The position numbers and the translations under genes were made by a program. Positions 31,437 to 41,258 of a DNA stretch of 64,000 nucleotides are shown one piece after another. Position 1 is the first letter of the stretch. Each line of letters starts with the position of its first letter. This stretch comes from a bacterium. GTDB lineage: Bacteria > Planctomycetota > B15-G4. Location: positions 6,074 through 70,073 of the forward strand of contig JAUIEF010000004.1 of the NCBI GenBank assembly GCA_030428785.1, in the 5' to 3' direction. The notes under the pieces were generated by a model. That model was not told the origin of the DNA and ran no database searches. It was given only the letters and a program-made list of their open reading frames with translations.

Positions 31437-31480
31437 CCCCGGGCGTCAGTCCCCACGACCCGGACGCGCGTCTCCGTGCC
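31437..31480. repeat. Left copy of a 44/45-bp direct repeat (copy of the G8 gene 3' end)
   Basis: ccccgggcgtcagtccccacgacccggacgcgcgtctccgtgcc is identical to 41214-41258 except for one C in a C-run. It ends 1 nt before the kinase stop codon (31481-31483). Confidence 0.9.
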
Positions 31481-34400
31481 TCAGCGCAGCTCCCGCAGGA
31501 CCCGCAGCGCCGCGGCGCGCGCGTCGTCGTCGAGCGTCGCGTCGTCTCGGATCGCCTCCGCCGCCGCCGAAGCGTCGCCCGACGCCGCGAGGTGCTCCAG
31601 CACGCGCGGGCGCACCGCCTCCCGCGCCGAGCGGGCCGCCTGGCGCCGGCCGTCCCAGGCCGCCGCGGAGAGCGCCGTCCACAGGCTCACCGTGCCGTCG
31701 CCCGAGCCCGCCGCGAGCTGGGTGCCGTCGGGGCTGAACGCCACCGAGTGCACGTAGTTCTCGTGCTCCTGCAGCGTGAGCACGACCTCCAGCGGGTCGA
31801 CGCGCCACACGTGGACGTTGCCGTCGCGGCCGCACGAGGCCAGGCGCGTGCCGTCGGGGTGGAAGTCGAGGGAGAACACCTCGCCCTGGTGGACCCGTCC
31901 CTCGGCACGCACCGCACCGCTGCGGCCGTCGAGCAGGAAGAGGGAGCCCTCGACGTCGCCCGCCGCGACGAGTCGGCCGTCCGGCGAGACGTCCAGCGCC
32001 CGGACGTCGGACAGCTCTCCGAAACGCGTGCCGGGCGGCGGCTCGTCGAGCGCCCGTGTGCGGACGACCCCCTCCGACTCTCTCCGGGCGCCCCAGATGC
32101 GACGCCCGGAGGGCCCGACCACGTGCGACTCGCCCGACGGCCAGGTGACCGCCTTGGCCCCCGGGTCGGGCGCCTCCAGCACCCGCCGGTCCATGAACGC
32201 CACGGCGACCTCCCGCGGCTCCGCCACCGGGCGCAGCGTCGCGACGTCGAGGGTCCACTCCACGGCCTCGCTGTGCACCGTGAGGTGCCGGCCGTCCGGC
32301 GAGAACGAGAGCGACCGGGGCGTGCGGGGCGACACCTGGTCGACCACGTGGTCCACGGGGTGTTCGACCACCGCATCCGGCTGCAGCTCGAGCAGCGCCA
32401 CCGGCGCGCCGGTCAGGGTGTCCCACAGGCGCACGGTCCAGTCCCAGCCCGCCGACGCGAGCAGCCGCCCGTCGGGGCTGAACGCCACCTGGTAGACGTA
32501 CCGCGTGTGGCCGCGCAGCCGCCGGTGCGCGTGACGGCCGGCCGTGAGGACGGCCAGGCGGTCCCGCCCCGCGGCGTAGAGCACGTCCCCGTCCGGGCCC
32601 TCCACCAGGTCGAGCACCGGGTCGGCCGTGGTCACGCGGCTCGCGGGCCGCCCGTCCGACAGGTCCCAGGTGATGAGCTCGTGGAGCCTCGAGGCCGAGT
32701 AGAGGCGCTGCCCGTCGCCGGAGAAGAGCATGGCCGTGATGCCGCCCCGGTGCCCGGAGAGCGTCTCGAACGGCGGACTCCCGGGGAGCTGCGCGGTCCC
32801 CGCCGGGATCCCGTCGCCGACGTAGATGACCCCGGGGACGTCGCCCAGCGCGACGCGGCCTCCGTCGGCGTCGTAGGCGACACACTCGATGCGGATGTCC
32901 CGCGCACCGATCTTCCCGAGCCTGAGCGGGAGGTCCCGTTCGACGTCGAGCTCCTTGTACTGGTTGAGGAGGCGCAGGCCGTCCGGCGAGAAGCGCAGCG
33001 GGCCCGTGTCCGTCGGCCATTGGGATTCGAGCAGCTGCGCGCGGCCGGTGCGCGGCTCGAGGACCTCGAACCCGACCTCCCCGGGCTGCCACACGAAGCG
33101 CGAACCGTCGGGCGAGAAGGCCTGGCCGCCCTGGTTGCGCGACGTCCGCGGCCACCGGCCCAGCCGCTCGCCCGTGGCGACGTCCCACACGACGAGCGCG
33201 CTCTCCAGCGAGGCCGCGAGGGTGGAGGCGTCCGGGGAGAGCAGCGGCCGCCCCACCGGTGCGCCCGCGTCGAACGTGCACACGGCCACGCCCGCGTCCA
33301 GCTCCAGCAGCTGCACCACGCCGTCGCGCACGACCGCGCCGACGGGCGTGCCGTCCGGGCGCAGCGCCACCGTGGTGTTGTGCCTGTTGGCGGGCGTCGG
33401 CGACCGGAGCCAGGGTGGGGGCGGGTCCCCGGGGATCTCGCGGATCTCGGCGTGCAGGTCCGCGGACACGAGGTCCCACTCGAAGCCGCGCAGGTCCACG
33501 GGCGCCTCGGCGAGCAGCCCCTGGGCGCGCTGAGGGTCGCGGTCGGACATGCCGTGCGCGCCCGTGATGCTGGCACGGTACGCGGCGCGCCGCGACTCGG
33601 CCGCGCTGTCGGCCTCGCGGAACGCGTAGTGGAGTACGAAGCCGAAGCCCGTGAGCAAGGCGACGAAGGCCGCCACGACGCCCCCCACGAGCCCGCGGTT
33701 GCGGCGCGTGAACATGCGCAACTTGTAGAGGCTGCTGGGCGGGTGGGCCTCGATGGGCTGGTGCGAGAGGTAGCGGCGGATGTCGGACGCGAGCTCCGCG
33801 GCGGACGCGTAGCGACGGCGCTCGTCCTTCTCGAGCGCCTTGCCCACGAGCGTCTCGACGTCGCCGCCCAGCCGGGTGTCCAGCGAGCCGAGGCGCGTCG
33901 CCTCCTCCTCCTGGATGATGCGCGCCGCCTGCGGCAGCGAGCCGCGCGGCAGCTGGTGCGGGCGGCGGCCGGAGAGCAGCTCGAAGAGCACGACGCCCAG
34001 GGCGTAGACGTCGCTGCGGACGCCCACGCGCGCGGGGTCGCCCGCGACCTGCTCGGGGCTCATGTAGGGCAGCGTGCCCATGACCTGGCCGGCCTCGGTG
34101 AGCAGCGTGGCGCCCTGCACGTCGGCGTCCGTCGCGCGCGCCACGCCGAAGTCGAGCACCTTGGGCTCGCCGTCGGGCGTCACGAGGATGTTGTCGGGCT
34201 TGAGGTCGCGGTGGATGACGCCCTGCTGGTGCGCGTGCTCCACCGCGTCGCAGATGCGCGCGAAGAGCTTGAGACGCGCGCGCACGTCGAGCGCCCGCGC
34301 GTTCGCGTCCGCGCAGAGCGGGCGCCCCTCCACGTACTCCATCGAGAAGAACGGCTGCTCGCCGTGCTCGCCCTCGACCGTGCCCGCCTCGTGGACCTGC

Positions 34401-34852
34401 GCGATGCACGGGTGCGCCAGCCGCCCGAGGATCTCCGCCTCGCGCCGGAACCGCCGCAGCAGGCCGGGCGCCACGAGGTCCTGGCGCAGCAGCTTGAGCG
34501 CGACGCGCCGGCTCGGGTTCTCCTGCGTGGCCTCGTACACGGCGCCCATGCCGCCGAGCGCGACGCGGCGCACGATGCGGAAGCGGCCCAGCCGTTCGGG
34601 CACCGGCGGCAGCGCCTCGTCCGCGGCCTCGAGGACCGAGTCCCGGACCGCCGTCCGCACGAGCGGCGGCCGGTCGAGCGGCGAGGCCCCCGCCGCGCCG
34701 TCGAGCAGCTCGAGCACCTCGGCGCGGAGCGTGTCGTCCCCGCCGCAGGCGTCGTCGACGAAGACCGCGCGCTCCGGCCCGTCGAGCAGGGACGCCTCGC
34801 CGACGATCTCCTTGAGCCGCGCGTACCGCTCGTCCGGCCCGGAGAGCGTCAC
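31481..34852 (-). CDS. Receptor-type Hanks Ser/Thr protein kinase: N-terminal helical region, kinase domain, one TM segment, WD40 beta-propeller(s)
   Basis: The in-frame GTG at 34852 overlaps the sigma stop (GTGA). Kinase motifs are GGMGAVYEA, ALKLL, HRDLKPDNILV, DFG and SPEQ. The TM segment is GLVGGVVAAFVALLTGFGFVL. There are multiple WD40 units (RLASCGRDGNVHVWRV, LAAGSGDGTVSLW). Confidence 0.9.
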   Translation of the reverse strand: MTLSGPDERYARLKEIVGEASLLDGPERAVFVDDACGGDDTLRAEVLELLDGAAGASPLDRPPLVRTAVRDSVLEAADEALPPVPERLGRFRIVRRVALGGMGAVYEATQENPSRRVALKLLRQDLVAPGLLRRFRREAEILGRLAHPCIAQVHEAGTVEGEHGEQPFFSMEYVEGRPLCADANARALDVRARLKLFARICDAVEHAHQQGVIHRDLKPDNILVTPDGEPKVLDFGVARATDADVQGATLLTEAGQVMGTLPYMSPEQVAGDPARVGVRSDVYALGVVLFELLSGRRPHQLPRGSLPQAARIIQEEEATRLGSLDTRLGGDVETLVGKALEKDERRRYASAAELASDIRRYLSHQPIEAHPPSSLYKLRMFTRRNRGLVGGVVAAFVALLTGFGFVLHYAFREADSAAESRRAAYRASITGAHGMSDRDPQRAQGLLAEAPVDLRGFEWDLVSADLHAEIREIPGDPPPPWLRSPTPANRHNTTVALRPDGTPVGAVVRDGVVQLLELDAGVAVCTFDAGAPVGRPLLSPDASTLAASLESALVVWDVATGERLGRWPRTSRNQGGQAFSPDGSRFVWQPGEVGFEVLEPRTGRAQLLESQWPTDTGPLRFSPDGLRLLNQYKELDVERDLPLRLGKIGARDIRIECVAYDADGGRVALGDVPGVIYVGDGIPAGTAQLPGSPPFETLSGHRGGITAMLFSGDGQRLYSASRLHELITWDLSDGRPASRVTTADPVLDLVEGPDGDVLYAAGRDRLAVLTAGRHAHRRLRGHTRYVYQVAFSPDGRLLASAGWDWTVRLWDTLTGAPVALLELQPDAVVEHPVDHVVDQVSPRTPRSLSFSPDGRHLTVHSEAVEWTLDVATLRPVAEPREVAVAFMDRRVLEAPDPGAKAVTWPSGESHVVGPSGRRIWGARRESEGVVRTRALDEPPPGTRFGELSDVRALDVSPDGRLVAAGDVEGSLFLLDGRSGAVRAEGRVHQGEVFSLDFHPDGTRLASCGRDGNVHVWRVDPLEVVLTLQEHENYVHSVAFSPDGTQLAAGSGDGTVSLWTALSAAAWDGRRQAARSAREAVRPRVLEHLAASGDASAAAEAIRDDATLDDDARAAALRVLRELR

Positions 34853-41159: not shown

Positions 41160-41202
41160 GCCGCCGCCGGGACCGCGCGGTCGTCCGCTCCCACGCGAGC
41201 GC
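41160..41202. repeat. Non-coding degenerate copy of the 3' end of the dienelactone-hydrolase gene (46353-46395)
   Basis: The ungapped alignment is 39/43 identical and includes a 21-nt exact run cgtccgctcccacgcgagcgc (41182-41202 = 46375-46395). With one gap, the upstream ccgagccgc also matches. Confidence 0.7.
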
Positions 41203-41213
41203 GGGGGCCCCGG

Positions 41214-41258
41214 CCCCGGGCGTCAGTCCCCCACGACCCGGACGCGCGTCTCCGTGCC
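41214..41258. repeat. Right copy of the 44/45-bp direct repeat (authentic 3' end of the G8 gene plus 9 nt)
   Basis: See feature 31437..31480. Here the repeat encodes ...TETRVRVVGD plus the stop codon of the G8 protein. Confidence 0.9.

Follow-up and report, generated by a model that had tools for sequence, protein, structure and literature searches.

A 44-nt non-coding sequence (T2') between a protein kinase gene and a PLP-enzyme gene of an uncultured high-GC planctomycete is best explained as a non-functional relic, the last 44 nt of a second, lost copy of a nearby two-gene block (block B, consisting of genes X and G8) that would once have stood between the kinase and PLP genes. We give this reading a probability of about 0.5; more broadly, T2' is most likely the scar of an old reshuffling of adjacent gene blocks rather than the border of a mobile island. 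The locus lies in a 64,000-nt stretch of DNA (the window) from a metagenome-assembled genome (MAG) of 5.68 Mb in 321 contigs, estimated as 85% complete. Between T2' and its counterpart T2 lie four tightly packed, chromosomal-type genes (block A) that encode a TSP3-repeat protein, a CarboxypepD_reg protein, an ECF sigma factor and a Ser/Thr kinase with WD40 repeats. The coordinates of all features are collected in the table.

Table. Features of the locus, in order of position within the window
Feature	Position	Strand	Remarks
Cys/Met-metabolism PLP enzyme (cystathionine gamma-synthase / methionine gamma-lyase family)	30081..31361	-	
D2, unique spacer of 75 nt from T2' to the PLP-enzyme start	31362..31436	-	
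T2', 44-nt non-coding duplicate of the 3' end of G8	31437..31480	-	followed by unique spacer D2
Ser/Thr protein kinase with WD40 propellers	31481..34851	-	longest ORF reaches 35464
ECF sigma factor	34849..35577	-	PF07638, E 5.4e-51; start uncertain
CarboxypepD_reg-domain protein, 498 aa (CPD498)	35501..36997	-	
TSP3-repeat (CglD-like) large secreted protein	37002..41135	-	first gene of block A
T1', decayed duplicate of the 3' end and downstream flank of DLH	41136..41213	-	63/77 to T1
Left inverted terminus of block B	41208..41226	+	CCCCGGCCCCGGGCGTCAG; overlaps the G8 stop
T2, authentic G8 3' end (11 codons, TGA and 9 nt)	41214..41258	-	also the left terminus of block B
G8 / CEMIP beta-helix protein	41223..44018	-	called form 818 aa
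Gene X, CarboxypepD_reg-domain protein, divergent from G8	43867..46320	+	start uncertain (43867 or 43953)
Right inverted terminus of block B	46317..46335	-	reverse complement CCCCGGCCCCGCTCGTCAG; overlaps the stop of X
T1, authentic DLH 3' end (..AALAWERTVALFRRRLG and stop) and 15 nt	46330..46407	-	
Dienelactone hydrolase (DLH)	46345..47508	-	PF01738, E 5.8e-39

T2' and T2 match at 44 of 45 positions, the sole difference being four versus five cytosines in a homopolymer, and their similarity breaks off sharply at either end, with no microhomology at either junction when the sequence is read directly. A 26-nt core of the repeat has two matches in the window, compared with none in 100 dinucleotide shuffles, and the same number across the whole 5.68-Mb assembly, making T2/T2' the sole such pair in the MAG; pattern scans of public metagenome and genome collections returned no further instance of the core. 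The first-pass annotation had described two near-identical repeats differing by a single C and far beyond chance, and on both counts we reach the same result. It had also raised the possibility of a generic repeat family, and T2 and T2' do resemble REP, BIME and MITE sequences in being short, GC-rich and located just after stop codons; however, with only two copies in 5.68 Mb and no significant secondary structure, the pair differs from such families, and its copy number leads us to reject a REP-like origin.

The two copies are of unequal standing, as the first-pass annotation had recognized in taking the right copy for the authentic 3' end of G8 and the left for a non-coding sequence adjoining the kinase stop, upstream of the PLP gene. 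The C-terminus encoded by T2 (..LGGSGGTFLDGTETRVRVVGD) is conserved and aligns with G8 homologues, which identifies T2 as the authentic gene end; the G8 stop codon (TGA, 41223-41225) lies inside it, preceded by the last 11 sense codons and followed by 9 nt of 3' flank. T2' ends at 31480, next to the intact stop codon of the kinase (31481-31483), and the PLP-enzyme start (31361) is 76-119 nt downstream of it. As kinase homologues align up to residue 1323-1324 of 1327, the C-terminus of this protein is intact. D2, on the far side of T2', probably represents the flank that ancestrally lay downstream of a G8 copy.

A second repeat pair has one member at the leading edge of block A. The entire spacer between G8 and the TSP3 gene is occupied by T1', whose source, the DLH gene, lies 5 kb away. 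T1' aligns with T1 with two indels and a score of 44 (18.2±2.6 for shuffles, with a maximum of 27.5), DLH is its best match among 2556 gene 3' ends, and translation of the spacer resembles the DLH C-terminus. T1' has synonymous states in common with the local DLH gene and scores lower against orthologue ends, while the four differences in its core are non-synonymous, most of them being T>C/G, and its stop is lost; from these differences, T1' is the product of in-situ decay of a local DLH gene-end copy. Its first position, 41213, directly adjoins the last position of T2, 41214 (flush junction 41213/41214). T1' is also the older of the two vestiges, as it carries substitutions at 14 of 77 positions compared with 0 of 44 in T2' (Fisher p=0.002). 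A small GC hairpin (GGGGC-CGGG-GCCCC) can be read in the sequence across the T2/T1' junction, and a 21-nt match to the G8-TSP3 spacer on contig C199 was rejected as a local chance motif.

Read along the minus strand, the locus has the order DLH.T1 - (X, G8.T2) - T1' - (TSP3, CPD, sigma, kinase) - T2' - D2 - PLP. It thus consists of two tandem units, each beginning with DLH-end sequence and ending with G8-end sequence, and the two repeat pairs are interleaved (T1..T2/T1'..T2') rather than nested. Since successive simple insertions yield nested or disjoint orders, they cannot have produced this arrangement. What is seen instead is the pattern of duplication followed by differential loss, with two interleaved repeat pairs, a flush novel junction between the units, and one authentic gene end and one non-coding vestige in each pair. 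A single duplication would be expected to leave vestiges of equal age, whereas T1' and T2' differ in decay, and the duplication-loss model therefore requires either that homogenisation went on until a late loss or that the two vestiges arose separately. When 2555 gene 3' ends were used as probes against the genome, the top two isolated matches on the same contig and strand were exactly T1' and T2', and copying of gene 3' ends was not enriched genome-wide (105 isolated matches, compared with 192 and 109 for internal controls).

From this arrangement we infer a lost copy of block B and the following order of events. The four-gene block would at first have stood directly behind DLH. Block B would then have come between DLH and the four-gene block, duplicating 77 nt of the DLH end to give T1 and T1', either by tandem duplication of the whole region, after which complementary parts were lost, or by duplicative copying of B. 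Later, the PLP-side copy of B would have been lost in a deletion that began immediately behind the kinase stop and ended 36 nt short of the G8 stop, leaving T2'. The mechanism may have been RecA-independent illegitimate recombination or end joining, and a Ku gene is present in the genome. A remnant of a deleted G8 copy had been the second choice of the first-pass annotation; it emerges as the best fit to all observations. The reading has costs of its own. The near-identity of T2' beside the 18% decay of T1' demands the extra assumption of either a recent second B copy or homogenisation between the two copies up to a late deletion. Direct repeats of 5 kb on both sides of block A would be unstable, no further vestige of the lost copy remains, and T2' meets the kinase stop with single-nucleotide precision, a coincidence under every model.

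Relatives are distant in the collections searched, where the nearest G8 homologue has 55% protein identity, the nearest block A homologue 44-47% and the nearest DLH and PLP homologues 83%; no genome there is close enough to reveal either a second copy of G8 or the ancestral gene order. Searches for the exact PLP and G8 proteins gave no match, and same-genus GTDB genomes hold distant paralogues only. In every relative found, DLH, PLP, G8 and the block module all have different neighbours. The nearest PLP (80-83%), G8 (55%) and DLH (78-83%) homologues lie in contexts with no neighbours in common with the window, an empty site with G8 followed directly by PLP was not found among these contexts, and on one contig of 774 kb, 560 kb separate the PLP homologue from the G8 homologue.

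The first-pass annotation had preferred an insertion of the four genes at the end of G8. In its fullest form, block A and the leading T1' (31481-41213) would have entered just after the G8 stop in one illegitimate event, for example if a staggered break took up a linear fragment through Ku-dependent end joining, with fill-in producing the 44-45-nt target duplication. We consider both the event and this route unlikely. The direct repeats are real and flank the block exactly, with an intact gene on one side and a displaced gene end with unique flank on the other. Neither microhomology nor a terminal inverted repeat would be required, and neither is seen (the ends of block A score 10.5, compared with 10.6±1.75 for shuffles); the Ku that end joining would use is present, and block A is a portable module, conserved in the family, whose neighbours and internal order differ between genera. 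However, the leading 77 nt come from the lineage's own DLH end and are 18% decayed, in contrast to the pristine target duplication. With a decayed T1' and a pristine T2', the inserted fragment must have carried an old fossil, and the block therefore already stood behind a DLH-end duplication. Interleaving with T1/T1' would moreover be impossible if that pair were an insertion scar as well. Composition, which had been proposed as a check for foreignness, also speaks against insertion, as blocks A and B are compositionally native, with tetranucleotide distances of 0.83 and 0.81 and 64-68% of 5-kb windows farther from the mean, whereas a genuine integrase islet, on contig C111, deviates strongly (3.61; GC 65%). 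No paralogous copy of block A was found in the genome. The flanking repeats of the preferred insertion thus stand, while the interleaved pairs, the older T1' at the leading edge, the native composition and the conservation of the module weaken the reading itself.

It is rather improbable that T2' is a short templated patch, in which 44 nt of the G8 end were copied into the kinase-PLP spacer without movement of the gene block, and equally so that template switching or ectopic single-strand annealing at a replication fork was the route. A single event would suffice, the hairpin across the T2/T1' junction could stall synthesis, and the length falls inside the range for SPDIR (short-patch double illegitimate recombination; bioRxiv 10.1101/2023.11.22.568220), which likewise places a short ectopic intragenomic stretch at a new site without a recombinase. 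SPDIR relies on microhomologies (bioRxiv 10.1101/2023.11.22.568220), however, and none exists at either junction here. The patch would also have to begin exactly after a stop codon and end exactly at the older T2/T1' junction, a flush coincidence that SPDIR leaves unexplained; gene ends show no genome-wide excess of patches, and T1' fills its whole spacer, for which a relocated native upstream region is a better fit.

The inverted termini of the G8 block are the sole element that may point beyond the ordinary. They match at 17 of 19 positions and are present nowhere else in the genome; among pairs of gene ends, inverted matches of this kind have an empirical rate of 7e-5. T2' starts exactly at the block B terminus. 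The terminus sequence is CCCCGGGCGTCAG. Block B (5.1 kb) might accordingly be imagined as a new recombinase-less or trans-mobilised duplicative unit of high-GC Planctomycetota, with 13-19-bp inverted termini over the stops of its two outward-ending genes, that inserts into a host gene 3' end with a target duplication of ~77 nt and has left T2' as the solo end of a second, lost insertion; we think this improbable. Target-site duplications are usually 2-15 nt, and exceptionally long, variable ones occur in the IS1634/IS1549 group. Direct repeats flanking a segment and the short inverted termini of block B are transposon-like, but duplications of 44 and 77 nt far exceed 2-15 nt, terminal inverted repeats are absent from block A and no transposase was found nearby. 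For B as a discrete moving unit, a 77-nt target duplication and an absent transposase would be unusual. No match to DDE_Tnp_1 or rve was found in the MAG, which, being 85% complete, does not prove that the genome lacks a transposase. X shows no paralogy with CPD498, nor G8 with TSP3.

We hold it very unlikely that the shared 44-mer is a functional cis element under selection (a terminator, RNA motif or operator) or an artefact of assembly or binning. T2' does lie in the PLP upstream region and is unusually well preserved compared with T1', but the repeat has only two copies, and an RNA element or terminator was rejected, as there is no Rfam match and no consensus terminator and the repeat folds no better than shuffles (z from -0.09 to +1.26). 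An integron attC was rejected by eye, the repeat having no GTTRRRY/RYYYAAC boxes, and a sigma-54 promoter at the start of T2' was rejected for its wrong spacing. The source is a fragmented MAG, but contig-end overlaps of 126 nt imply an assembly k of 127, far above 44, so that single k-mers span both junctions and a 44-nt repeat could not cause a mis-join. Least credible is that T2 and T2' are the attL and attR of a decayed integrative island that targeted the G8 3' end and carried a replacement gene end in the manner of islands that target tRNA genes: direct repeats of ~45 nt that include the target-gene 3' end do flank block A, with the intact gene beside one repeat and only a stranded partial copy at the other, in agreement with the geometry and repeat length of the C111 islet at tRNA-Arg(CCT) (where the tRNA 3' end is duplicated exactly over 45 nt and, when extended, over 57 nt), but here there is no recombinase in the block, window or contig, the composition is native, unlike that of the islet, the genes form a module conserved in the family, and the repeats are interleaved with a second, unrelated pair. 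Pfam and NCBIfam scans of the block and flank genes found no integrase or transposase domain in block A or in the window from 21 to 52 kb, and the three Phage_integrase matches in the genome are all on other contigs; the earlier choice to refrain from calling a mobile element was sound.

The duplication and loss favoured here have their closest parallel in tandem duplication with random loss, a model of mitochondrial gene-order change for which our literature search returned mitochondrial papers only. The likeness lies in two tandem units with the same junction sequences, non-coding vestiges of gene ends and a change of gene order without a recombinase, and the difference in a bacterial chromosome, a unit of ~15 kb and vestiges of different age. 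By analogy, T1' and T2' may be scars of the same kind as those left by ordinary bacterial duplications. Read in this way, the scar is a piece of genome archaeology that records how two adjacent planctomycete gene blocks reached their present order. Where direct repeats bracket a set of genes, interleaved partners should be sought before island borders are called, and short gene ends stranded in spacers can reveal a history of rearrangement even where no close relative has been sequenced.

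The 3' end of the G8 gene (T2) recurs as a non-coding copy (T2') upstream of the PLP-enzyme gene, and the two are identical except for one C in a C-run, as the first-pass annotation had reported. Its 26-nt core matched twice in the window, compared with zero matches in 100 shuffles, and has two occurrences in the whole assembly and no match in public metagenome or genome collections. The C-terminus of the G8 protein (..LVLGGSGGTFLDGTETRVRVVGD) aligns with those of its best homologues (..VLGGSGSTVTDGTEIVLKVTE, ..LGGSGGSIMDGTEVVLVVTE and ..LGGTGGTMMDGLGTRVDVMP), which bears out the earlier assignment of the right copy, T2, as authentic coding sequence; T2' is the derived copy. 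T2' begins at the base directly after the kinase TGA; nothing is missing from the kinase C-terminus, since alignments with homologues run to residue 1323-1324 of 1327. Four genes lie between the copies, as first counted (TSP3, CarboxypepD_reg, ECF sigma and kinase; block A). The longest kinase ORF shares its 5' portion with the ECF sigma gene, which is in a different frame and whose stop codon overlaps the probable start of the kinase, indicating that the 1327-aa ORF over-extends the kinase.

Genes, repeat copies and block termini at the locus (window coordinates)
Feature	Coordinates	Strand	Remark
Dienelactone hydrolase (DLH)	46345-47508	-	
Gene X, CarboxypepD_reg domain	43867/43953-46320	+	two candidate starts
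G8/CEMIP beta-helix protein	41223-44018	-	
TSP3-repeat, CglD-like protein	37002-41135	-	
CarboxypepD_reg protein (CPD)	35501-36997	-	498 aa
ECF sigma	34849-35577	-	PF07638
Ser/Thr kinase with WD40 propellers	31481 to ~34851	-	
Cys/Met-metabolism PLP enzyme	30081-31361	-	
T1, DLH gene 3' end and flank	46330-46407	-	
T1', copy of T1	41136-41213	-	
T2, G8 gene 3' end	41214-41258	-	
T2', copy of T2	31437-31480	-	
D2, unique 75-nt spacer	31362-31436		
Block B (X and G8), delimited by T1' and T1	41214-46329		
Left terminus of block B	41208-41226		CCCCGGCCCCGGGCGTCAG; overlaps TGA stop
Right terminus of block B	46317-46335		reverse complement CCCCGGCCCCGCTCGTCAG; overlaps TGA stop

A second duplicated gene end lies between G8 and TSP3, where the translated spacer (17 residues) resembles the DLH C-terminus (..AALAWERTVALFRRRLG, then stop). 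The nucleotide alignment of this sequence, T1', with T1 shows identity at 63 of 77 columns, with two indels besides, and scores 44, compared with 18.2+-2.6 for shuffles (maximum 27.5), and DLH is the best match to the spacer among 2556 predicted gene 3' ends. T1' occupies the whole spacer, reaching from the start codon (ATG) of TSP3 to the base adjoining T2. The T2/T1' junction (41213|41214) is flush. It scores 44-46 against the local DLH end and only 31.5 and 23.5 against the nearest orthologue ends, and shares synonymous states with the local DLH, identifying it as a decayed copy of the lineage's own gene end; in its core it differs from T1 by non-synonymous changes, mostly T>C/G, and it has lost the stop codon. 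Divergence is significantly higher in T1' (14/77 substitutions) than in T2' (0/44; Fisher p=0.002).

On the minus strand the locus reads DLH.T1 - [X, G8.T2] - T1' - [TSP3, CPD, sigma, kinase] - T2' - D2 - PLP, and the repeat pairs are therefore interleaved (T1, T2, T1', T2'). Simple insertions with target duplication, if two occurred in succession, would leave the pairs nested or disjoint; they never yield the observed arrangement, because either supposed insert would then contain the scar left by the other event. The pattern is instead one of two units in tandem, both of which start with the DLH end and finish with the G8 end. All workable models share three elements: T2'-D2-PLP retains sequence that ancestrally followed a G8 gene end, the four-gene block formerly lay directly downstream of DLH, and duplicative rearrangement independent of any recombinase gave rise to the present order. 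The model that accounts for all the observations while adding the fewest assumptions is one in which a second copy of block B once lay between kinase and PLP and was later lost save for its last 44 nt, and to this family of models we assign a probability of about 0.5. The first-pass annotation had offered a deleted G8 copy as its alternative, and that suggestion fits the observations best. Such a history could have begun with [T1-block A-block B] being duplicated in tandem and continued with complementary losses, or it could have run through duplicative copying of block B as a discrete unit. Because T1' and T2' have decayed to different extents, either the loss or the second copy must be of recent date, or homogenisation kept the copies alike up to that point.

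The other first-pass reading, in which the four-gene block was inserted and 44 nt of its target were duplicated, is correct that repeats flank the block, but what would be the front of the insert is an old fossil of local origin (T1'), and we consider this reading unlikely. Tetranucleotide composition gave no sign of foreign origin: the four-gene block (distance 0.83, GC 73.3%) and the X+G8 block (0.81) are both genome-typical, with 64-68% of all 5-kb windows lying farther from the genome mean.

The 3'-terminal 60 nt of 2555 predicted genes, together with two internal control sets, served as probes against the assembly. A genome-wide process copying gene 3' ends was rejected, as isolated matches were no commoner for 3' ends (105) than for the controls (192 and 109). 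The top two isolated same-contig, same-strand matches of the 3'-end probes were exactly T2 to T2' and T1 to T1'. Similarity does not extend past either end of T2/T2'. That T2' is a templated short patch is rather improbable. A function for the repeat, or an artefact, is very improbable. Neither T2 nor T2' folds better than shuffled sequence, and neither has a consensus promoter, terminator or Rfam match. Nothing indicates function in the repeat itself; T2' may be conserved as a piece of the sequence upstream of PLP. The MAG (5.68 Mb, 321 contigs, 85% complete, 73.9% G+C) has exact 126-nt overlaps between many contig ends, which inflate a naive repeat census and imply assembly at k=127 (de Bruijn), at which a 44-nt repeat is unable to cause a mis-join.

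The least probable reading is that T2/T2' are decayed att sites. A census of unique intra-contig direct repeats returned four isolated pairs of at most 90 nt, T2/T2' among them. A second pair, likewise a gene-3'-end repeat, comprises the 3' 45 nt of tRNA-Arg(CCT) (57 nt with mismatches) on another contig (C111:12897-15749), copied 2764 nt downstream of the original. This is a genuine small integrase islet with a true att duplication and, unlike the present locus, it has a tyrosine-recombinase fragment (14960-15304) between the copies and an extreme outlier composition (distance 3.61, GC 65% versus 74% for the genome). Consistent with the first-pass annotation, no integrase or transposase domain was found in the four-gene block or in 21-52 kb of the window; the genome's three tyrosine-recombinase matches are all on contigs other than C237, which holds the window, and DDE_Tnp_1 or rve had no match anywhere in the MAG.

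Tandem repeats also occur elsewhere in the window. At least six units of ~237 nt (645-2047; 63-72% identical) lie inside the large ORF at the window start and probably encode repeated extracellular domains. Close to a gene end are three 48-nt units (21037-21180; 96% and 77% identity to the first), each with a stop-like motif, 'TCAGGAC/TCAGTAC', that looks in-frame.

The closest named protein relatives are Planctomycetota (Saltatorellus ferox G8 protein, 52%; Planctomycetota MAG PLP enzymes). The four-gene block is single-copy in the present MAG, and a TSP3 / CarboxypepD_reg / kinase neighbourhood recurs, at protein identities of 30-51%, in three further genera within the same family, with variable gene order and two copies in one genome. 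The TSP3 / CarboxypepD_reg / kinase-WD40 set looks like a conserved surface/signalling module. No DLH, X, G8 or PLP gene was found near the module loci of relatives, and the nearest homologues elsewhere (PLP 80-83%, G8 55%, DLH 78-83%, the 498-aa protein 44%) are all in unrelated contexts, so that no empty site or ancestral order is legible among the relatives found. The PLP enzyme, of the methionine gamma-lyase / cystathionine gamma-synthase family, has different neighbours in every contig examined; one of them, L017, carries an island with an integrase a few kb upstream of the enzyme gene.

Block B extends 9 nt past the stop codon of G8 at one end and equally far past that of X at the other, and its termini form a 19-nt inverted repeat matching at 17 positions. 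With the two variable positions left open, the pattern has only these two sites in the genome, and a match as good, in the same register, occurs in 7e-5 of 3.26 million gene 3'-end pairs. No inverted repeat is present at the ends of the four-gene block. T2' has the inner 13 nt of the terminus before diverging into D2, and thus the same terminus adjoins two different flanks. The termini are suggestive only, because they were noticed post hoc and share their outer 6 nt with the T1/T1' duplication. Scars of duplication and stranded gene ends are already known phenomena, to which this locus adds a tidy example whose interleaved layout is unusual; its sole less ordinary lead is the pair of inverted termini of the G8 block.
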